A stretch of DNA of 64,000 bases, taken from Deinococcales bacterium. GTDB lineage: Bacteria; Deinococcota; Deinococci; Deinococcales; JAAFIG01. Positions 5,103 through 32,666 of this stretch are shown piece after piece. A program made the translations under genes and the position numbers. The number at the start of each line of letters is the position of its first letter. Position 1 is the first letter of the stretch. The DNA lies in contig JAYWGM010000048.1 of assembly GCA_043778225.1 (NCBI GenBank), positions 1 through 64,000 of the forward strand, in the 5' to 3' direction. The notes under the pieces were generated by a model. That model was not told where the DNA came from. It saw nothing but the letters and a program-made list of their open reading frames with translations, and ran no database searches.

Positions 5103-6062
5103 TTACTTTAACAAACCAATGTCTTTTAAGGTTTTGACGATTTTATCGTCCTCGAGTTTGAGGAAGACCTCAAATTTTGCACCAGACTGGTAAAGATCAA
5201 TCCAACCTTTTTGTTTGAGCATTTCTTTCCACTGTGGTGTGGCGTTCATTTTGTCCATCAGACCAACCAATTCAAGGCGGCGGCTTTCGGTAATCCCCGG
5301 AGGGGCAACAATGCCGCGCCAATTGGCAATTTCGACATTGACTTTTTGTTCCTTAAACGATGGCGCATTGACTCCAGCGATTCTCTTGGCACTCGAGACA
5401 CCCAAAAGGCGCAATTTGCCAGCTTCAACTTGGGGCAGAAATTCGGACAGGCTCGAGACTCCAGCTGCGACTTGATTACCCAACAACGAAGCCAATGCTT
5501 CGCCGCCACCAGCATATGGCACATAATTAACTTTAGCCATATCCGTACCACTGGCTTTGGCGAGTAAACCGACCGTGATGTGGTCTGTGCCACCAGCACT
5601 ACCGCCAGCAATCGGCGTACCACCGGGGTTGGCTTTCCAAGCCGCTAAGAAGTCGCTCAGGTTCTGGATTTTGCTACTGGCTGGCACAACCAAGGCTTGA
5701 AATTCGCCCGTCAAACGTGCAATCGGTGTAACCATGTCGAGGTTGGCTTTACTTTTGTTGGTTTGAATTGCACCAACCATGACTAAGCCCATGACCATCA
5801 GTTGATTGCCATCGCCTTTGGCATTGACAAACTGGGCTAAACCGACTGTACCACCCGCACCAGCCACATTTGAGACTTGAATCCCAGTAGCCAGTTTCGT
5901 ACCCTCGAGAACATTTTGAATCGAGCGAGCCGTCTGGTCCCAACCACCACCCGGCGCGGCTGGTGCCATAATTTTAAGCCCATTGACCTGTGCCACACTC
6001 GAGACCCCAAAACCCGCCAGCAGGGCTGCCATACCAAGACCGAACAACATTCGCTTTTGCAT
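5103..6062 (-). CDS. tctC: Tripartite tricarboxylate transporter substrate-binding protein TctC (Bug family)
   Basis: [13 protein letters not shown] and [10 protein letters not shown] motifs, signal peptide; GGAGGA RBS before ATG at 6062. Confidence 0.93.
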
Positions 6063-9057: not shown

Positions 9058-11268
9058 ATGAACCGCTACGATGACCGCGCCCGACTTGTATTTCATTATG
9101 CTCGAGAAGAAGGTTCTAAACTCGGTCATGCCATGATTGGACCTGAGCATTTGCTGCTTGGCTTAATGCGTGAAGGCGGAACTGCCTGCCGTATCCTGAC
9201 CGAGTTTGGCGCAACCCTAGAAGGTTTTCGCCGTCGGGTCGAAGAAATTATTGGGCGCGGTGAGGGTTTACGCCACACCGAAGCCCCAGCCATCACTCCA
9301 AGGGCGCGTCGTGTGATGGAACTTGCTTCGTCCGAAGCCAGAAACCTTGGCAGCCAAGTGATAGGCACAGAGCATATTTTGCTTGGAATCCTGCGTGAAG
9401 GCGACGGCGTGGCGTATCGTATCCTGACCGATTTGGCTCGAGACCCAGACACGATTCGCTGGCGTATTTTAGCCCACACCGACCCCAAACAAGAACCAAA
9501 AAATGTCAATACCCCATTTTTAGACGAGTACGGACGCGATTTAACCAAGGAAGCCCGAGATGGAAAACTCGACCCTGTGATTGGGCGCAGCGAAGAAATT
9601 CGCCGTGTGGTGCAAATTCTCTCGCGCCGCACCAAAAATAACCCCGTCCTCATCGGCGACCCTGGTGTAGGTAAAACCGCGATTGCCGAAGGTTTAGCTT
9701 TAGCCATTTTCGAGAAACGAGTACCAGACAACTTGAAAAATGTCCGCTTAATTTCCATAGATTTATCGGGTGTCGTCGCGGGGACAAAATACCGTGGCGA
9801 ATTTGAGGAGCGCTTGCGCCAAATCATCGAAGAATTGCGTCAGGCTCGAGTCGTGGCATTTGTGGACGAGTTGCATACACTTGTTGGGGCTGGCGGCGCA
9901 GAAGGCACACTTGATGCCGCCAATATCCTTAAACCAGCCTTGGCTCGAGGTGAAGTCCAAGTGATTGGCGCAACCACGACTGGCGAGTATCACCGCTATA
10001 TCGAGAAAGATGCAGCCTTAGAACGGCGTTTCCAGCCTGTGCTGGTTCTCGAGCCTAGCCCCGAAGAAACCGTCGAGATTTTGCGCGGCTTAAAACCGCG
10101 TTACGAAGAGCATCACAATGTGATTATTCCAGATTCAATGCTGATTCTGGCGGTCAAGGTTGGCGAGCGCAGTTTGCCGGGGCGCAATTTCCCCGATAAA
10201 GCCATTGACCTGATTGACGAAGCTGGCTCGAGGGTGCGCTTAAATGCCAGCCTCAATATGCCAGTCTTAGAAGATGCCAGTGGTACACCGATTGTCTCGA
10301 GAGAGGACATCGAAGCGGTGGTGGATTCGTGGGGCGGAGTCTATATCGATGACCGCGACGACCAAAAATTGCTTGGACTCGAGGAAGAATTGCGGGCGCA
10401 GGTCTTTGGGCAACCCGACGCGGTGCGCTCCTTGGCTTCGGCACTGCGTCGTTCTCGAGTTGGCTTGGGTGGACAAACCCGTTTGGCAGCCAGTTTTCTC
10501 TTTGTTGGCTCGAGTGGGGTTGGCAAAACTCACCTTGCCAAAGCCTTAGCAAAAACCTTGTTTGGTTCTGACCGCAGCCTAATTCGTTTTGATATGTCCG
10601 AGTACCAAGAAGCCCACAGTGTTTCTAAACTGATTGGCGCACCGCCGGGCTACGTGGGCTACGACCAGGGTGGGCGTTTGACCGAAAGTGTGCGTCGTCA
10701 GCCGTTTAGTGTGATTTTGCTTGATGAAATCGAAAAAGCCCATCCAGATGTCTATAACACCTTTTTGCAAGTCATGGACGATGGGCGCTTGACCGATGGG
10801 ATGGGGCGAGCCGTAGACTTTAAGCGCTGTATTTTAATCATGACCAGCAACACCGGCTTTAACGTGTCTGGCGGTGTGCGCTTTGCTGGCGACTCGGAAA
10901 TTACCGACACCCAGCCCGTCAAGAACCTCTTTACCCCAGAATTTTTAGATCGCCTTGATGAAGTGATTCGCTTTAAGCCACTGGGCGAAGACGAGTTAAT
11001 TAACATCTCGAGAACCCTATTAGAAGAGATGCGCCTTGAGCTAAAAAGCCGCGATTTACGGATTAATTTTGATTCTAAAATCGCCGCCTATTTGGTCTCG
11101 AAAGTCAAACTTAAAGGCTCGAGCCGTCAGTTGAGGGCAATTATCCGCGATGAAATCGAAGACCCCTTGGCAATGGCGCTGCTGACCTTCCCCGAGGGCG
11201 AGGTCTTTGTTTCGATGCAATCTGGGAAAATTGAATTTGCACGGCTTGATTTGGTGGCTGATTTCTAA
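9058..11268 (+). CDS. clpC: ATP-dependent Clp protease ATP-binding subunit ClpC
   Basis: Clp N repeats (EHLLLGL), two AAA modules ([16 protein letters not shown]), [13 protein letters not shown]. Confidence 0.93.
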
Positions 11269-11302
11269 ATACATACTGACTAACTTGTGTTATGCTTAGC
11301 TA

Positions 11303-11542
11303 ATGTTGTCTGTTAATATGCTCGAAGCAAAAACACAGCTTTCAAAATTGGTTGAACGCGCCTTAAATGGTGAAGAAGTCGTCATTGCTCGAGATGGTCA
11401 ACCACAAGTTCGGCTTGTGCCAGTAAGACAAAAATTGCTTCGACCTATCGGTCTACACTCAGCCATAGGATTGAGTCAGCAAAGCCTAAAAGAAAGTATT
11501 TCACCGCTCTCAGCCGAAGAACTTGAGGCATGGAATGGCTAA
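11303..11542 (+). CDS. Type II antitoxin, Phd/YefM family
   Basis: VNMLEAKTQLSKLVERALNGEEVVIARDG pattern; leaderless TATGCT-6nt-ATG. Confidence 0.9.
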   Translation: MLSVNMLEAKTQLSKLVERALNGEEVVIARDGQPQVRLVPVRQKLLRPIGLHSAIGLSQQSLKESISPLSAEELEAWNG

Positions 11543-11927
11543 AAGTGTTCTAATAGATTCTCATGTCTTACTTTGGTTCAATCACAAACCAGATGAACTC
11601 AGCCCTCGGGTAACGACACTAATGCGTGACCCAGAAGTAGTTATTTTTGTTTCAAGTATGACAGCACATGAACTAGCCGTAAAATTTGCCAACGGTAAGT
11701 TGCCTGAAGCGATAACACTGATTGATGATTTTCTAGGAATACTCAGCCGCTACGGGTTTCATGAATTGCCATATACCATCAACGATGCACTAAGAGCCGC
11801 CAAACTGGAAGGAGAACACAAAGACCCTTTTGACCGTGCATTAAGCGCTCAGGCACTCGAACGAAATTACGATTTGGTCAGTATTGATAAGGTGTTGGAT
11901 CAATTTGGAGTGCAGCGCATTTGGTAA
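11535..11927 (+). CDS. vapC: Type II toxin VapC (PIN domain)
   Basis: LIDSHVLLW...HKDPFDRAL..QA PIN motifs; overlaps the antitoxin stop. Confidence 0.9.
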   Translation: MAKSVLIDSHVLLWFNHKPDELSPRVTTLMRDPEVVIFVSSMTAHELAVKFANGKLPEAITLIDDFLGILSRYGFHELPYTINDALRAAKLEGEHKDPFDRALSAQALERNYDLVSIDKVLDQFGVQRIW

Positions 11928-11946
11928 TCTGAAATCAAAGACGCTT

Positions 11947-13605
11947 TTATTGCCTCACCAACAAGCGCAGTTGCTCGAGTCCAGCACGATGACAGTAATC
12001 CCCAAAGCGCTCATGCTCGAGCCGATTGGTCTTAAAATGCTTAAACAGTGGATCGAGGGTTGGAATCATTTCTTCGCGCTTGATGTTGTCCAAAAAGACT
12101 TGCGACAAACGTGTCCCAAGGTGGCTGCCACCTAAGTACAGCGCATAACTGTTGACCCCACGTCCGACCAAACCCACTTCAGCGCTGTATGGTCGGGCGC
12201 AACCATTTGGACAGCCAGTCATACGAATGTGCGGCGCGAGCGTGTCCGACTCGAGGTCATACTGCTCGAGCAAGGTTTGGACTTCGCGGATAAGTTCTGG
12301 CAGGGCGCGTTCGGCTTCGGTAATCGCTAAACCACAAGTTGGAAAAGCTGGGCAAGCCATCGAATGACGCACGACTGGCGCGATAGCTTCTGGCAAGGCA
12401 ATACCATGAGCGCTCAGCAACGCCTCGAGCGCGGCTTTATGCTGCGGCTGGATATGACAAAGCAGCATATTTTGTTGTGGGGTCAGGCGAACCTCAGGGA
12501 CAAATTGCTCGACGGCGCGGCGCAAACCAACTCGAGCTTGGTCTTTGATGCGTCCATTTTCGATAAATAGACCAAGAAACAAGTTGCCATCGCCCTGTTC
12601 ATGCCAGCCCAGATGGTCATCGCCAGACAGCCACTCGAGCGGCTGAGGTGCTGGAAGGCTGACACCAAGCACGGCTTCGACTTTTTGCTTAAAACCAGCA
12701 ATGCCCAAGGCTTCGACCAAATACTTCATACGGCTGTACTTGCGGTCGTCGCGCCGCCCAAAGTCGCGCTGTACTGCCACAATGGCTTTGATCGTCTCGA
12801 GCAGTTGCTCTGGAGCAATGGTCGTCATCGGGTCGCCAAGGCGTGGATGGGTGTCCTTGACGGTGTGTGACTGCCCGAGTCCACCGCCGACAATCAGGGT
12901 AAAGCCCGTCAGCACTTCGCCCGTTAAAACTGGCACAATCCCAACATCTTGGGTGTAGACATCCACACAGTTATCGTTCGGGAAAGCAAAAGCAATCTTA
13001 AATTTACGTGGCAAGTACGATTCTTTATACAACGGCTCTTCTTCTTCAATGCTGGCGGCTTTTTCGCCGTCTAACCAAATTTCAAAATAGGCTCGGGCGC
13101 GTGGTTTTAGGTTGTCGGACAACGAAAGCGCATGAGCCATGATTTGGTCTCGAGCCGCAGACTTAAATGGGGCTGGACACGCCACGATATTTCGCACCAC
13201 ATCACCACACGCCGAAAGCGAAGTCAGGTTGTGGGCTTGCAGGGTTTTAAGCAGTGGCTTTAAGCCACCTTTGAGAACCCCATGGTACTGAATGGCTTGG
13301 CGGGTGGTAATCCGCAGGGTGCTGTTTGCCAATTGGTCTGATATTTGATCAAGCAACAGATATTGTTCTCGAGTCAGCACTCCACCAGCAATCGCCACCC
13401 GAATCATAAACGAATGCAGCGCCCCAAGACCTTGGGCTTTGCGAATTTTTCGTAAGTCACGGTCAGATTGTTGGTAAATGCCATGAAATTTTAAGAGCAG
13501 TTCGCTCGAGTCTATAAAATGGTCTTCTTGGTTCTCGAGTTCGCTTTGCAATGTACCACGCAAATAGTGGCTCTCGAGTTTAACGTGTTCAACTTTACTC
13601 AGCAT
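11947..13605 (-). CDS. cysI: Assimilatory sulfite reductase hemoprotein subunit
   Basis: LKFHGIYQQ, ACGDVVRN, YLPRKFK, CPAFPTCGLA and TGCPNGC siroheme/FeS motifs. Confidence 0.9.
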   Translation of the reverse strand: MLSKVEHVKLESHYLRGTLQSELENQEDHFIDSSELLLKFHGIYQQSDRDLRKIRKAQGLGALHSFMIRVAIAGGVLTREQYLLLDQISDQLANSTLRITTRQAIQYHGVLKGGLKPLLKTLQAHNLTSLSACGDVVRNIVACPAPFKSAARDQIMAHALSLSDNLKPRARAYFEIWLDGEKAASIEEEEPLYKESYLPRKFKIAFAFPNDNCVDVYTQDVGIVPVLTGEVLTGFTLIVGGGLGQSHTVKDTHPRLGDPMTTIAPEQLLETIKAIVAVQRDFGRRDDRKYSRMKYLVEALGIAGFKQKVEAVLGVSLPAPQPLEWLSGDDHLGWHEQGDGNLFLGLFIENGRIKDQARVGLRRAVEQFVPEVRLTPQQNMLLCHIQPQHKAALEALLSAHGIALPEAIAPVVRHSMACPAFPTCGLAITEAERALPELIREVQTLLEQYDLESDTLAPHIRMTGCPNGCARPYSAEVGLVGRGVNSYALYLGGSHLGTRLSQVFLDNIKREEMIPTLDPLFKHFKTNRLEHERFGDYCHRAGLEQLRLLVRQ

Positions 13606-13648
13606 AGTTCCTCAAAAAACCCGCGCCTAAAAGCACAGGTCAAGAATT

Positions 13649-14083
13649 TTAGAATGATTTAGGCTTTAAGCGGTAGGACAGTTGTCGCCATTGAAAGTAC
13701 AAAAAGCAACCGACGCAAATTTTGGTGGTCAGGTTAAGCAGCGCCAACGCCAAAACCAAAAACGCCACAATCCAACCAAGATTGGGGCTACCCAAAACAA
13801 AAAACAAGCTCGAGAGACCTAAAAAAACTGAACCAAGTCCTTGGGCAAAATTGTGTGGACGTGGGTCATCTTGCTCGAGTAGAACTTGGATTTTGAAAGT
13901 CGGTCGAAAGATATGCAGATAAAATTGCTTAAAAAGTGCTAAGCGCGGCTCGAGTGTGCCAAGCAGCATCACCAGACCAACCACGGCAACCAGTGGCGAA
14001 AATTGCAGTAGCCATGCCAGCATAATCAGCCCAACGATGCTGATTTGATTGGCTTTCAGAACGTTAGCGTCAAAAGTCTTCAT
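13649..14083 (-). CDS. DUF4395-family membrane protein
   Basis: PHNFAQGLG and ICVGCFLY motifs. Confidence 0.8.
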   Translation of the reverse strand: MKTFDANVLKANQISIVGLIMLAWLLQFSPLVAVVGLVMLLGTLEPRLALFKQFYLHIFRPTFKIQVLLEQDDPRPHNFAQGLGSVFLGLSSLFFVLGSPNLGWIVAFLVLALALLNLTTKICVGCFLYFQWRQLSYRLKPKSF

Positions 14084-14625
14084 TACCTCTCCCCCATTGA
14101 ATCTAAAGACTCGAGTAAAGCCCTCGAGACTTCGCGCTGGGCGACATCGGATACGATTGCGGCAGTCAATAGAATCCAGTCTGGTACGTTTTGAGCAAGG
14201 AGTTTTATTGGCTGACCTGCAAAAACCTGACCTTCTAACAGCCCATCAAAAATTCTAAACTCGAGTGGCTGAGCTTGGTCGCCGTAAAAAATTTCGCCAC
14301 GCAGGGTTTCTGCTCCCAAAAAAACCACAGCACGTTCGATAAACCGTGACCCCGAAAAACGAATCTCAAGCTGATGGTTACTGACATGGGCGCTGACCAC
14401 CAGGCGCACTGCGCCACTCAAGACTGTACCTAACAGACTATGAACACGCCGCTCGAGCCGCAGATTTTCGGCAAACCACCAACCACCGAGCCGCCCCTCG
14501 AGTTGCTGACCATCCCAAGAAAGTGCGATGTCATAGCGAGCCAGTGGGTCAAGGATTGAACCTTTAATGCGTTGGCGAGTGCGAAGGGTGGAAATGGGTT
14601 GTGTTCCCGTAGCAAATAATTGCAT
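14083..14625 (-). CDS. Hypothetical protein, first gene of the sulfite reductase operon
   Basis: 180-aa ORF with GGAG RBS; TAATG coupling to the DUF4395 gene. Confidence 0.65.
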   Translation of the reverse strand: MQLFATGTQPISTLRTRQRIKGSILDPLARYDIALSWDGQQLEGRLGGWWFAENLRLERRVHSLLGTVLSGAVRLVVSAHVSNHQLEIRFSGSRFIERAVVFLGAETLRGEIFYGDQAQPLEFRIFDGLLEGQVFAGQPIKLLAQNVPDWILLTAAIVSDVAQREVSRALLESLDSMGER

Positions 14626-14659
14626 GGTTTATCTCCGTTTGTGGTGAGGTCGAAAAGTT

Positions 14660-14716
14660 TTAAGCCAAAAAGGTTTCTTGCCAACAACACATTCGCAAAA
14701 AGAAGAGCCGATTCAT
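14660..14716 (-). CDS. Putative leaderless Cys-Cys leader peptide MNRLFFLRMCCWQETFLA
   Basis: ATG lies 6 nt after a TACCAT -10 box; TGT-TGT codons; directly upstream of sulfur assimilation genes. Confidence 0.5.
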   Translation of the reverse strand: MNRLFFLRMCCWQETFLA

Positions 14717-14722
14717 GAAGCT

Positions 14723-14750
14723 ATGGTATATGGTTTACAAAAATTGTCAA
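14723..14750 (-). promoter_or_regulatory. Sigma70-type promoter TTGACA-16nt-TACCAT
   Basis: Consensus -35 and TANNNT -10 read on the minus strand. Confidence 0.65.
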
Positions 14751-14804
14751 GTATTCAAGGCTACCGTCAGTCGGCTCGAGAATGTTAAGAGGCACTTGCG
14801 TAAG

Positions 14805-15980
14805 TCAGCAGCGACGCAGCATCAAGGCTAAACCATTTGCGCCGCCCATACACAAACTGGCAATCCCGATTTCTTTTTGTTGTTGCTCGAGGGTATGCAG
14901 TAAAGTCACGATAATCCGAGCGCCACTGCACCCGATTGGATGCCCCAGAGCAACTGCGCCACCATTGAGGTTGACTTTTTGAGCATCTAGCCCAAGTTCC
15001 TGTATCACCGCCAGCGCCTGAACCGCAAAGGCTTCGTTGAGTTCAAAAATGTCCACATCGGCAAGGCTCATGCGCTGTTGCTCAAGCAATTTTTGAATGG
15101 CTGGCACAGGCGAAAGGGTAAACCATTTTGGCAAAAGACCACTGGTTGCATAGCCAACAATTTCTGCCAGTGGCTTCAAACCGTGCGCTTTGGCAACTTC
15201 TTCGGACATGACCAGCAAAGCGGCTGCACCATCGTTGATACTTGGGGCATTTCCGGCGGTGACTGTACCACCATTGAGAAAAGCCGGGCGGAGTTTGGCT
15301 AGACTTTCTAGGCTCGAGTCGGCTCGCGGTGATTCGTCGGTTTCTATCGTCACCGTACCTTTTTTGGTTTCAAGATACAACGGTTCGATTTCGGCTTTGA
15401 AGCGCCCAGCCGCCATGGCTGCCACGGCTTTTTGCTGCGAATGCAACGCAAATTCATCTTGCTCGGCTCGAGAAAAACCTTTTTCTTTGGCAATAAACTC
15501 AGCCGCATCGCCCATCCGCCAATGCTCGAAGGCACAGGTTAAGCCGTCCAGCATATTGGCATCTTTGAGTTCTTGATGTCCCGCCTTAAAACCTTCTCGA
15601 GCGCCAAACATCAAATAAGGCGCATTGCTCATGGATTCCATACCGCCAGCCACAGCAATCTTAAAATCCCTAGCCCGAATACCCGAAGCCGCGATCATCA
15701 CGGCTTTCATCCCACTGCCGCAAACCACATTGACCGTGGTTGCCCCACTCGAGGGTAACATCCCAGCCTGTAAAGCCGCTTGACGGGCTGGATTTTGTCC
15801 AACGCCGGCTTGTATCACATGACCCATAATCGCTTCTTCAACCAGACTTGGCTCGAGACCCGCCCGAGCCATGGCAGCCCGAATCACGTGCGCCCCAAGT
15901 TGTGGGGCGGATACATCTTTTAATGCGCCTAAAAATCTTCCAATTGGACTGCGAACCGCCGCGACAATCACTGTTTTCAT
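14805..15980 (-). CDS. Acetyl-CoA C-acetyltransferase (thiolase)
   Basis: [20 protein letters not shown] and CMGG motifs; TACAAT-6nt-ATG at 15980. Confidence 0.95.
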
Positions 15981-16032
15981 CGGGCTATTGTAGCAAGGAA
16001 ACCATCCCACTTCGAGACTCGTAATGTAGGAC

Positions 16033-16512
16033 ATGACTTGGCTACCCGATGTGCTTTTTATTCTGATTTGGCTTGGCGCTTTGCTGGCGACCTTTATTCC
16101 AATTGTGCCAGCCACGCTGCTGATTTGGGGAGCAGCTTTGGTTCATGCGCTTTTAAGCGGTTTTCAGCCATTGACTTGGGGCTATTTATTTGCGCTTGGT
16201 GTTTTAGCTGCCGCCGCGATGTTGGTGGACAATCTCGCCGCCGCTTGGGGGGCAAAGAAATTTGGTGGCTCGAGTTATGCGGCTTGGGGCGCACTGCTTG
16301 GTGGGTTATTGGGTATTTTTCTTGGACCGATTGGTTTTTTAATTGCGCCGTTTTTAGGGGCAGTGCTGCTCGAGGTGCTGCTCGGCAAAAAATCTTGGCT
16401 CGAGGCTGGCAAAAGTGGTGTGGGGACATTGCTTGGCATACTTGGTGGGGTTGGTGCAAAACTGATTATTCATCTTGCTATGGGTATTTTGGTTTTAAGC
16501 CGCATTCTTTAA
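16033..16512 (+). CDS. DUF456-family membrane protein
   Basis: PIVPA...[16 protein letters not shown]...PFLGA pattern. Confidence 0.85.
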
Positions 16513-18893
16513 TACTTTGTTCCACCCTCGAGACTTTCGCCATATGGAATCCAGATGTTTTTGACTTGGGTGGCTTCACGCAGGGCTGTTTTTGGCTCGA
16601 GAAGCGCTACGTCCTGCCCCTCGAGATTCCAAGTGCGCTTTAAGTTACTGGCACTGGCTTGCTCAAGCATTTTAGCCTTACTGGTTAGCCAAAGCGCATC
16701 CACATCCATGTGTTCGGCTAACGTTTTGCCAAGGCTGGTCGAATCGCCCGTGATGATGTTGACCACGCCATTTGGCACATCAGAAGTCTCGAGCAAGCTA
16801 TAGAAATCGGTGGCAACCAGAGGATTGATTTGGCTTGGCACAACCACCACCGTATTGCCCAGCGCAATGGCAGGGGCAATCAGAGCGATCAAGCCCAAGA
16901 GCGGTTGGTCATCGGGGCATAAAATACCAATCACACCGATGGCTTCGTTCATGGCTAATGCCACACCACGCATTGGAATGCTATGGACTGCGCCATCGAA
17001 TTTATCTGCCCATGCCGCATAAATAAATAATTTCTCGATTGCCATTTCGACCTCGAGTTTGGCGGCTTCTAGGTTGCCCGACTGGCTCGAGAGGCGTTTT
17101 GCAAAGTCGGATGCTCGAGCCGCTAAATTTTCTGCCAAGTAGTACAAAATTTGCGCTCGGTTGTGGGCGGTGGCGCTCCCCCAACCAGATGCCGCATGAG
17201 CCGCCTCAACTGCATTGCGGATGTCTTTGCGGTTGCCCTCGCTGACTTCGCCCAAAAGCACACCGCTCGAGGAATATATGGCTCTCGAGTAACCAGAATC
17301 TGGGCGAACCTGCTTACCGCCTATAAATAATTTGGGGGTTCGGTCAATCGGGGGCATTGTCAAAGCATCTTGTTGCAGTGTGGGCGAGGCAAGCCTAGCC
17401 CCTAAGGTGGATTTTGGCTTTTGCCTTTCGACTTTTATTGCTTTCAAATACTCGTACATCCCTTCGCGTCCGCCTTCACGACCAAACCCAGATTCTTTGA
17501 CCCCACCAAAGCCAGCCGCCGCATCCATTTGGTTGGTGCAATTGACCCAAACAATCCCAGCTTTGATGCGCGGCGCAACCTCGAGCGCCAAATTGATGTT
17601 TTCTGTCCAGACACTCGAGGCAAGCCCGTAGACCGTATTGTTGGCAAGTCCAATCGCTTCTTCGATGGTACGAAACGGCATCATGACCACGACTGGTCCA
17701 AAAATCTCGAGTTGCGCTACGGTGCTGCTGGGCGAGATGGCACTAAAAACAGTGGGTGGATAAAAATAGCCATTGGTTGGACAAGTCCAAGACGGCTGCC
17801 ACAGGCTCGAGCCTTCGGACACGCCTTGGGCTACCAAACTCGAGACCCGCTCAAATTGCTCGAGGCTGCACAAAGCACCCATATCAATGTTTTTCTCGAG
17901 CGGATTACCAATTCGTAAGGTTTCCATACGGGCGCGGAGTTTAGCAAGCAGCGAATCATGAATGCTTTCGTGAACCAGAATGCGGCTGCCAGCACAACAG
18001 ACTTCGCCTTGGTTAAACCAAATCGCATCCACCACGCCTTCGACCACGCTATCAAGGTCGGCATCATCAAAGACCAAAAACGGCGACTTGCCACCCAACT
18101 CGAGCGAAAGCTTTTTGCCTGTGCCAGCCGTGGCAACACGGATTTGCTTACCAACTTCGGTACTGCCCGTAAAAGCAATTTTATCTACGCCAGCATGATT
18201 AACCAGTGCCTTACCAGTCTCACCATCGCCAGTCACAATGTTCAGGACACCCGCCGGCAACCCAGCCTCGAGTGCAATTTCAGCAAAAAGTAATGCCGTG
18301 AGCGGCGTGAATTCGGCAGGTTTTAGCACCACCGTACAACCTGCTGATAATGCTGGTGCGACTTTCCACGCCAGCATAAGAAGTGGGAAATTCCACGGAA
18401 TAATTTGCCCGACCACACCAGCCGCCTCAAACCCAGAAAATTCGGTCTCGAGCAGTTGCGCCCAACCCGCATGATGATAAAAATGCCGCGCCACAAGTGG
18501 AATATCAATGTCTCGAGTTTCACGGATGGGTTTGCCATTGTCCAGCGTCTCGAGAACCGCAAATAGACGGCTGTGTTTTTGAACCAGCCGCGCCAAAGCA
18601 TACAAGTACCGCGCTCGAGCATGACCAGACAAGGCTTTCCAGGCTGGCAAGGCTTTACGGGCGGCTTTGACGGCTGTGTCCACGTCGCTGCTCGAGCCAG
18701 AGGCAAATTTTGCCAACACGGTTTTGTTGGCAGGGTTAATCGTCTCGAGCGACACTTTGGTTTTGACCCATTTATTGGCAATGAATAAATGAAATGATTT
18801 TTTGTGCGACTCGAGCCACGCCAAGGCTTCGGCAGCAGATTCGGGGGCAGCACCGTACTCGAGGGTATCAAAAATTTGGGCGACAGTTGGCAT
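16509..18893 (-). CDS. Aldehyde dehydrogenase, long two-domain (ALDH16-like) form
   Basis: IIPWNFP, FTGST, LELGGK and NQGEVCCAG motifs plus a second degenerate ALDH domain; AAGGAG RBS. Confidence 0.92.
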   Translation of the reverse strand: MPTVAQIFDTLEYGAAPESAAEALAWLESHKKSFHLFIANKWVKTKVSLETINPANKTVLAKFASGSSSDVDTAVKAARKALPAWKALSGHARARYLYALARLVQKHSRLFAVLETLDNGKPIRETRDIDIPLVARHFYHHAGWAQLLETEFSGFEAAGVVGQIIPWNFPLLMLAWKVAPALSAGCTVVLKPAEFTPLTALLFAEIALEAGLPAGVLNIVTGDGETGKALVNHAGVDKIAFTGSTEVGKQIRVATAGTGKKLSLELGGKSPFLVFDDADLDSVVEGVVDAIWFNQGEVCCAGSRILVHESIHDSLLAKLRARMETLRIGNPLEKNIDMGALCSLEQFERVSSLVAQGVSEGSSLWQPSWTCPTNGYFYPPTVFSAISPSSTVAQLEIFGPVVVMMPFRTIEEAIGLANNTVYGLASSVWTENINLALEVAPRIKAGIVWVNCTNQMDAAAGFGGVKESGFGREGGREGMYEYLKAIKVERQKPKSTLGARLASPTLQQDALTMPPIDRTPKLFIGGKQVRPDSGYSRAIYSSSGVLLGEVSEGNRKDIRNAVEAAHAASGWGSATAHNRAQILYYLAENLAARASDFAKRLSSQSGNLEAAKLEVEMAIEKLFIYAAWADKFDGAVHSIPMRGVALAMNEAIGVIGILCPDDQPLLGLIALIAPAIALGNTVVVVPSQINPLVATDFYSLLETSDVPNGVVNIITGDSTSLGKTLAEHMDVDALWLTSKAKMLEQASASNLKRTWNLEGQDVALLEPKTALREATQVKNIWIPYGESLEGGTKY

Positions 18894-31681: not shown

Positions 31682-31769
31682 GTGGTTAGGCTAACAGGAA
31701 TTGGCGCGAAAATGTGCGAACAAGCGTTCAGTTGCTCGGTTTACAAGATTTATCAAGTATACTCAAAGC

Positions 31770-32666
31770 GTGAAACGACTGGCAGTATTGTTGGCAATCC
31801 TTAGCTCGAGCTTTTTGATGGTTCAAGCCACAACCCTTTCAGTGGTCATGACCGACTTTACTGGCGAACGAATTGAAATTTCCAGCACTGCCAGAATCGT
31901 GACGCTTGGCAGCAGTCTGACCGAAATAGTCTATGCCTTAAATGCCCAGCAGCGCTTAGTGGCGGTCGATGCCACCAGCAATTTTCCACTCGAGACCAAA
32001 AACTTAATGCAGTTGCCATCTGCTCGAAGCGCCACGCTCGAGGGCGTACTCAATGCCAAACCGAGCTTGGTCTTAACGCTCGATACCGCCCTGCCCGAAA
32101 CGATACAAGGTTTACGAAAATTTAACATTCCAACCGTGGTCATCAGCGCCAAAGAGAACCTTGAAAACAGCCAAAATAAAATTCGTTTTGTGGCTCAAGC
32201 CCTGTCACTCGAGACTCGAGGACTGGAACTAATTCGCAATTATCAAAAAGACCTTGCCTTGGCAAAAAGCCTCTACTCGAGCATCCGAAACCGCCCTAAA
32301 GTGATGTTTTTATATAGTGGCTCTGGCGGCAAAATCACGGTTTCTGGGCGCGATACCGCCGCCGATGCGGTGATTAAATTGGCGGGTGGCACAAATCCGT
32401 TCCAGAGCTACACGGGTTATGCACCACTCTCGCAGGAAGCCACAATTCTTGCCAATCCAGACATCATTTTGATGACCAGCCTTGGGTACAGTGGGGCTGG
32501 AGAAACCCAAGGTTTACTGCGCCTACCGGGGCTTGCCAACACCAAAGCTGGACGAAATAAAAACTTTTTGCACTTTGAAGGCAATTATTTACTTGGCTTT
32601 GGTCCACGCATTGGGCAAGCGGTGCTAGAACTGATGTATGCGATTCACCCAGAACTTAAAAAATAG
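31770..32666 (+). CDS. Heme/hemin ABC transporter substrate-binding protein (HmuT-like)
   Basis: RIVTLGSSLTEIVYAL...VAVDATS and LLGFGPR motifs; TATACT-6nt-GTG start. Confidence 0.85.
   Translation: MKRLAVLLAILSSSFLMVQATTLSVVMTDFTGERIEISSTARIVTLGSSLTEIVYALNAQQRLVAVDATSNFPLETKNLMQLPSARSATLEGVLNAKPSLVLTLDTALPETIQGLRKFNIPTVVISAKENLENSQNKIRFVAQALSLETRGLELIRNYQKDLALAKSLYSSIRNRPKVMFLYSGSGGKITVSGRDTAADAVIKLAGGTNPFQSYTGYAPLSQEATILANPDIILMTSLGYSGAGETQGLLRLPGLANTKAGRNKNFLHFEGNYLLGFGPRIGQAVLELMYAIHPELKK

Follow-up and report, generated by a model that had tools for sequence, protein, structure and literature searches.

An 18-codon frame with two tandem cysteine codons, encoding MNRLFFLRMCCWQETFLA, stands at the predicted mRNA start of a sulfite reductase operon in an uncultured member of the Deinococcales, and it is probably a real leader peptide that senses cysteine. 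The operon encodes a 180-aa protein, a DUF4395 protein, and an assimilatory sulfite reductase, and lies on the minus strand of the 64,000-nucleotide stretch of DNA that we analyzed (the window). Because the Cys-Cys frame sits at the predicted start of the message and is kept in all close relatives, it most likely raises sulfur assimilation at low cysteine. We favor, with somewhat better than even confidence, a leaderless cysteine-sensing leader peptide for this operon, on a promoter that would also bear the operator of a sulfur regulator. The sensor part, the Cys leader peptide, is likely. Masking of the ribosome-binding site (RBS) is the best reading of the output, although an unproven one that fits the sequences of five congeners well and that of the window poorly. 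The sequences themselves show the layout of the leader, its conservation, the preference of the genome for leaderless starts, and the related Cys leaders of the lineage. The transcription start site, translation of the frame, ribosome pausing, and the output step are what we infer from the arrangement described below.

Promoter, leaderless frame, and operon

The window is contig C48 of a metagenome-assembled genome of 4.03 Mb, 89% complete and 48.7% G+C. On its minus strand, a −35 box, TTGACA (14750-14745), is followed after a 16-nt spacer by a −10 box, TACCAT (14723..14728), and six nucleotides later (AGCTTC) by the ATG of a small open reading frame (sORF). The preliminary description had given this promoter arrangement, and it is exact to the base. 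The −35 box lies inside a 26-nt block, AATACTTGACAATTTTTGTAAACCAT (14730..14755, minus strand), that is invariant in the six genomes of the genus that have the operon. The sORF occupies 14660..14716 on the minus strand, its stop codon counted in, and runs from the ATG at 14716-14714 to a TAA at 14662-14660. Its codons are ATG AAT CGG CTC TTC TTT TTG CGA ATG TGT TGT TGG CAA GAA ACC TTT TTG GCT TAA, in which the tandem TGT TGT (14684..14689, minus strand) is the proposed sensing site. A spacer of 34 nt (14626..14659), as had been claimed, separates the stop codon from the ATG of the first operon gene at 14625; it contains a Shine-Dalgarno (SD) sequence, GGAG, at 14636-14633.

Taken alone, the window does not raise this promoter above chance. 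A consensus scan of 13500-15500 found one sigma-70-like site, that of the sORF, and shuffled sequences yield as many (1.6 ± 1.4). The case therefore depends on comparison, and it is conservation in relatives that lifts the promoter above chance. With two mismatches allowed, the genome has a single copy of the 26-nt block. A near-copy with three mismatches on contig C106 was treated as chance; the gene behind it presumably encodes a phosphatidate cytidylyltransferase-like membrane protein, as judged from its N-terminal sequence. Rfam gave no match in 11000-17000 at E values up to 1, so the region corresponds to no known riboswitch or leader family. No intrinsic terminator was found in 14626-14716 by a site scan, nor in the minimum free energy (MFE) folds of the leaders of the window and five congeners.

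The distance between the −10 box and the start codon of the sORF matches the genome's own leaderless signature. Among 2751 long ORFs, the spacing from TANNNT to the first ATG or GTG is 6 nt in 384 cases and 7 nt in 164, against about 45 per position elsewhere, and from this enrichment a large share of the genes in this genome appears to start leaderless. This agrees with Deinococcus deserti, in which 47% of mRNAs begin at the initiation codon, according to the accessible part of the study by de Groot et al. (2014, PMC4007540). At the level of sequence, the sORF is leaderless in the same way as the mycobacterial frames considered below, with 6 nt between the −10 box and the ATG in the window and 6-7 nt in congeners.

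All three operon genes lie on the minus strand. The first (14083..14625) encodes the 180-aa protein, which has no Pfam or NCBIfam match, and the second (13649..14083) is a DUF4395 gene (PF14340, E = 8.8e-29). The third (11947..13605) encodes an assimilatory sulfite reductase hemoprotein of the CysI/Sir type (552 aa, NIR_SIR and NIR_SIR_ferr domains) that scores 709 bits against NF010029, the profile for assimilatory sulfite reductase hemoprotein, with a cut-off of 457. Coordinates and profile matches bear out the order proposed earlier, a hypothetical gene followed by DUF4395 and cysI, and the order is identical in all six genomes of the genus that hold the operon. The sORF is the first cistron, and the assimilatory sulfite reductase is the third gene of the operon. 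The predicted structure of the 180-aa protein is confident (pLDDT 86.9; 12 strands and a long C-terminal helix). Since its only matches in the PDB are weak, LolA or lipocalin-like folds at a TM score of 0.36 or less, the protein is left without an assigned function.

The genes for the 180-aa and DUF4395 proteins travel as a pair. In this genus they precede sir, and in a genome of a sister genus (G013) they lie behind sbp-cysT-cysW-cysA (L026, 7131-7715 and 6666-7091, minus strand, after sbp-cysTWA). The leader would tie this pair to sulfur assimilation. The genome of the window (G000), at 89% completeness, has no match to the PAPS reductase or ATP sulfurylase families, and cysC, cysH, and sat of G013 gave no matches in it as tblastn queries; PAPS_reduct was found in four of seven congeners. 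A gene pair for a Phd/YefM antitoxin and a PIN-domain toxin (11303-11927, plus strand) converges on the 3' end of the gene for sulfite reductase.

Conservation in the genus and other Cys leaders in the order

Orthologues of the 180-aa protein are present in five of the seven other genomes of the genus, at 70-75% identity; the two genomes that lack one are 57% and 82% complete. Upstream of the operon, the 26-nt promoter block is the same in all six genomes despite differing upstream neighbors. The −10 box reads TACCAT, TAAAGT, or TAGATT, and in every case an ATG follows 6-7 nt on. It opens a frame of 15-18 codons: MNRLFFLRMCCWQETFLA in the window and MKLCDLLEPRMCCCSSR, MNFSVLQKPRMRCCP (in two genomes), MYLHVLQKPRMRCCP, and MKFVFKTRETRMPCCCH in the congeners. 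The frames have in common the motif R-M-(x)-C-C(-C), with Cys runs of MCCW, MCCC, MRCC (three times), and MPCCC, such that at least two adjacent Cys codons are found in six of six. As the preliminary description had proposed, the Cys codons upstream of the orthologous operons are thus kept, together with the position of the start and the frame.

The manner in which the frames differ is consistent with selection for a translated frame with adjacent Cys codons. The distance from the ATG to an invariant CGAATG is 21, 27, or 30 nt, each length state being divisible by three. At either edge of the Cys run, a T to C change gives Arg in three genomes and a T to G change gives Trp in the window; at least two adjacent Cys codons remain. 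A CCA insertion ahead of the run in one genome preserves the frame. The N-terminal codons and the spacer of 34-52 nt between the sORF stop and gene 1 (46-52 nt in congeners against 34 nt in the window) are poorly conserved among the six genomes. All 14 Cys codons of the runs are TGT, in a genome where TGT and TGC are used about equally (3250 against 3298). Since some three deep lineages are all that the six genomes represent, the evidence for a translated, Cys-Cys-selected frame is good but not overwhelming.

Outside this group, a DNA search of 19 genomes of the family detected the leader in these same six alone, and on that search it is confined to one genus. A scan of the genome collection with the 180-aa protein returned the five congeners and G013, and a scan of metagenomes returned one locus, at 44% identity, that has no Cys sORF ahead of it. 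The element appears narrow, since no Cys sORF was found ahead of the distant homologues of the 180-aa gene that were examined, upstream of cysK in the genome of the window, or upstream of the cysC operon in four congeners.

Other cysteine leaders were nevertheless found in the order. Ahead of cysS in the genome of the window is an unannotated frame, MKFLALCCCPRVRVA (C101:28559-28680; L024 1371-1470), that follows TATACT by 6 nt. It is succeeded by an 8-bp stem, CGCTCGAG / CTCGAGCG, a T-run, TTTTTTATTT, and then the SD sequence and cysS. This leader, with its CCC, is kept in eight of eight genomes of the genus, and the cysS leaders use TGC as well as TGT. From its sequence, it reads as a textbook leaderless transcription attenuator. 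The sister genus, in the same family, has a leader on the reverse strand, MRPLPLFPIRTCCRMSTLEARC (L027, 564-700, from G013:C1:5052100-5055600), before cysC-cysH-sat with sir further on, and its terminator is GCAGCGC-AGATG-GCGCTGC-TTTTTTT (7-bp stem, T7). The words TGTTGT and CGAATG occur in this leader in reversed order relative to that of the window.

Another family of the order has, about 150 nt before sir, a frame of 27 codons that ends in SCCRSLCCS (G063, L052 5844-5927) and a homologous frame that ends in ARCSC (G019, L053 ~5835-5905); the promoters ahead of both contain the operator-like word found in that of the window. In a third family, four genomes showed no CC frame within 6 kb before sir. 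The upstream comparison was made without G008 and G010, where a contig ends or the operon is unclear. Genome-wide Cys-Cys screens are noisy: 19 of 520 promoter-like sORFs contain CC, and there are 66 intergenic candidates and 128 with the −10 geometry, of which the sir and cysS leaders alone were taken further to conservation. As far as these sequences indicate, Cys-codon leaders turn up repeatedly across the order, though with a patchy distribution. The word CTCGAG, which occurs 24,877 times in the genome of the window against about 931 expected from base composition, makes up the stem of the cysS terminator and those of hairpins in congener leaders.

The preliminary description had also inferred that a cysteine-sensing attenuator exists in this lineage. 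Conservation in six of six genomes, leaderless starts on a large scale, and sister Cys leaders equipped with terminators all support this. It had further offered sensing of Met-Cys as a variant, and nothing favors that over sensing of Cys. We rejected a Met-Cys sensor: a single Met precedes the run, and its conservation is explained equally well if AUG-YG base-pairs with the AUGCA of gene 1.

The output step and control at the promoter

In the mechanism that we propose, transcription would begin at or beside the A of the ATG at 14716, and a 70S ribosome would read the 18-codon frame. When charged tRNA-Cys is scarce, the ribosome would pause with the tandem UGU in its decoding center, where it would cover the Cys tract and a few nucleotides on its 5' side and keep them unpaired. 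Since that tract would otherwise pair with the SD sequence and AUG of gene 1, the pause would open the RBS and the operon would be translated. With ample cysteine, the ribosome would clear the frame, the leader would refold, and initiation at gene 1 would be damped.

Because the sulfite reductase leader, unlike its sister leaders, has no terminator, we examined occlusion of the RBS. The preliminary description had suggested that such a fold be sought; it is supported for the five congeners, as a predicted duplex between the Cys tract and the SD-AUG region, but not for the window's own sequence. In the congeners, the segment from AUG through the Cys tract pairs with GGAGA-ACA(A)C-C-AUGCA of gene 1 at −12.4 to −15.0 kcal/mol. 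These duplexes beat 95.3-99.7% of tract shuffles and 97.7-99.3% of 600 other initiation regions (top 0.7-2.3%). The RNAalifold consensus is the same helix (12 pairs, −1.86 kcal/mol), with no compensatory changes. The third-position U of the congener Cys codons pairs with A in the duplex, which would explain the exclusive use of TGT; the cysS leaders need no such pairing.

In the window, the corresponding duplex reaches −4.4 kcal/mol, worse than 89% of tract shuffles and better than no more than 33% of 600 unrelated SD-bearing initiation regions. The 121-nt leader folds to an MFE of −17.8 kcal/mol (z = +0.88), a stability equaled or exceeded by 167 of 200 shuffles; in the MFE structure, UCUUC of codons 4-5 pairs with GGAGA at a probability of only 0.25-0.33. 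For all six leaders, the pairing probability of the SD sequence is not above that of shuffles (0.79-0.97, where shuffles average 0.69-0.78 and 9-55% of them score at least as high). When a 28-nt ribosome footprint over the Cys codons was masked in silico, the SD sequence became freer in only one leader of six (0.79 to 0.52). Another pyrimidine stretch, CCUCC or UCUUC at codons 4-7, can replace the Cys tract in pairing. The pairing probabilities, the outcome of masking, and the lack of compensatory changes speak against RBS masking.

The main alternative for the output step, an unlikely one in our estimate, retains the same ribosome-pausing sensor and couples it to transcription, with Rho acting on the untranslated first part of the operon to cause termination or polarity. 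It would suit a leader that has no intrinsic terminator and, in the window, a weak RBS-masking helix, and with sister leaders that work through terminators, output at the level of transcription would be a local habit. Rho was suggested for terminator-less Cys leaders of actinobacteria in the text available from Seliverstov et al. (2005, PMC1262725). However, the 34-52 nt from the sORF stop to the next start are short for Rho loading, and the complementarity of the tract to the initiation region in five of six genomes would be left without a role. The mycobacterial terminator-less case, moreover, was shown to be translational, according to the portion of the preprint consulted (10.1101/834739).

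RBS masking is the output that we prefer. In its fullest form, the proposal is a terminator-less, translation-level Cys attenuator outside the Actinobacteria, in which the UGU sensing codons are also the strand that masks the SD sequence and AUG, an operator lies on the same promoter, and the helix of the window has largely decayed. We hold this version tentatively and put its chances somewhat below even. If it is true, one sensor would be wired to two outputs side by side, a terminator at cysS and at cysC-cysH-sat-sir of G013, and RBS masking here.

The promoter itself contains an imperfect, operator-like palindrome, TGACAA-TTT-TTGTAA (14735..14749), that overlaps the −35 box and the spacer. 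The pattern TKAYAA-N3-TTRTMA is not enriched in the genome, since seven matches were found against about 4-5 expected. Four of the seven lie on promoters: those of the sulfite reductase operon, a leaderless SufE-domain gene (C19), a double-rhodanese gene (C70), and a Peripla_BP_2 gene. The last is in the window, where TTTACAAGATTTATCAAGTATACT (31741-31755, plus strand) overlaps the promoter of this gene, which encodes a substrate-binding protein and has a leaderless start at the GTG at 31770. The same word is found on the cysC promoter of four congeners, before the operon for a sulfate-binding protein and before the homologue of the 180-aa gene in G013, and before sir in G019, G063, and G031. 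It has been seen before sulfur genes in three genera and two families of the order. A sulfur regulator may bind at the palindrome. The sulfate transporter operon of G013 and a gene for an Rrf2-family regulator are divergently oriented, and this regulator has a 64%-identical orthologue in the genome of the window (C36, 26729-27199). Our suggestion that the binding protein is of the Rrf2 type is a guess modeled on CymR; our literature search returned no paper on Rrf2 or palindrome regulation of this sort in Deinococcus. As the candidate operator overlaps its promoter, the sORF would not be the sole control, and we predict from the sequence a two-layer control of the sulfite reductase operon, by operator and leader.

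It could also be that an operator-binding transcription factor controls the operon by itself, the sORF being a by-product of the leaderless start and CGAATG-GTTGTTG a DNA or RNA element that reads as Cys-Cys by accident, either as a second operator or as an anti-RBS strand acting constitutively. The invariant 26-nt promoter has the palindrome, which recurs at SufE, rhodanese, and cysC promoters that have no sORF. The 14 of 14 TGT codons and the invariant CGAATG point to a constraint at the level of nucleotides, and the ATG of CGAATG pairs, along with the tract, with the AUGCAA start of gene 1. Constraints on nucleotides and on coding can coexist, however, and the frame stays open through three indel states, each a multiple of three. 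The T to C, T to G, and CCA changes always leave at least two adjacent in-frame Cys codons, and two further cysteine-metabolism operons in the family have independent, non-homologous Cys-rich leaders. We consider control by such a factor alone improbable. Less probable still is a functional Cys micropeptide, for instance a metal- or sulfur-binding partner of the operon proteins, for which R-M-(x)-C-C is conserved and the first two operon proteins have no known function, but everything outside R-M-x-C-C diverges in products of 15-18 aa that end 1-7 residues past the Cys run, and other genera that have the 180-aa/DUF4395 pair lack the peptide there.

Comparison with known systems

Leaderless Cys-rich sORFs that act as attenuators in mycobacteria, the precedent cited in the preliminary description, are indeed on record (Canestrari et al., bioRxiv 10.1101/834739). 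In the portion of that preprint available, polycysteine leaderless sORFs are described at Ms5788A of M. smegmatis and six further loci; the polycysteine tract of Ms5788A pairs with the SD region, and its regulation was shown to be translational (10.1101/834739). As far as that text allows comparison, the frame of the window is similarly leaderless, has at least two adjacent Cys codons near its 3' end, and comes first on the transcript of a sulfur or cysteine operon. It likewise has no intrinsic terminator, and in the five congeners its Cys tract is complementary to the SD sequence of the next gene. Unlike Ms5788A, it belongs to the phylum Deinococcota, has no sequence relation to the mycobacterial frame, and is known here from sequence alone. 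Its frame is shorter (15-18 against 30 codons), as are the 3' untranslated region (34-52 against 97 nt) and the Cys run (2-3 against 8 residues). There is no long stable duplex, the pairing is weak in the window, and a candidate operator lies on the same promoter.

Closer in phylogeny are the leader peptides of D. deserti. The accessible text of de Groot et al. (2014, PMC4007540) reports 14 leaderless leader peptides with mapped transcription start sites, which precede genes for tRNA ligases and amino-acid biosynthesis and for which transcription attenuation was proposed; one is a 10-aa peptide with two Cys residues before cysS. On the evidence of that text, the leader of the window shares with them the order, the geometry of −10 box and 5' AUG, and regulatory codons that correspond to what the controlled gene produces. 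In the genome of the window, the leader ahead of cysS is the direct counterpart of the two-Cys cysS leader there (PMC4007540). The sulfite reductase leader differs from those described in having no terminator. None of the D. deserti leader peptides precedes a sulfite reductase in supplementary tables S2, S9, and S10 (PMC4007540), with one supplementary file outside the search.

In that charged tRNA would be sensed by pausing at tandem codons for the end product, the leader resembles attenuators of the trp and his type and uORFC-8-2, which is described in the text available as a Cys leader motif before cysS of Rhodobacterales (PMC8632094). Classical attenuators need a terminator and a competing antiterminator, and a terminator is absent between the sORF and gene 1. 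Because a terminator was sought and not found, the sulfite reductase leader is not a classical transcription attenuator. It is nearer in this respect to the terminator-less Cys leaders of actinobacteria, whose mode of action Seliverstov et al. left open, with Rho suggested, in the part of their paper at hand (2005, PMC1262725). These also have Cys runs close to where a short ORF ends and lack a conserved terminator hairpin, but, as described there, they are actinobacterial and precede other operons (PMC1262725).

Within the portions of the literature covered by our search, Cys leaders are described in mycobacteria and other Actinobacteria, before cysS of D. deserti, and before cysS of Rhodobacterales; none was found before a sulfite reductase in Deinococcota. 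As we read it, the sulfite reductase leader belongs to a type of switch already known and extends that type to a new lineage. To our knowledge, cysteine was long without a described ribosome-mediated attenuator, and the experimentally dissected cases are mycobacterial only. Added interest comes from the terminator-less design, a UGU-only tract that would double as an anti-RBS strand, and two possible output modes in one lineage. Three unannotated, putative regulatory genes are flagged in this lineage, namely the sulfite reductase sORF, the cysS leader, and the leader of the G013 operon. That the two designs coexist within single genomes suggests easy exchange of the output step between termination and RBS masking. 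A conserved Cys leader in Deinococcota, next to terminator-type ones, also suggests that many bacteria use tiny unannotated frames to sense the charging of tRNA-Cys.
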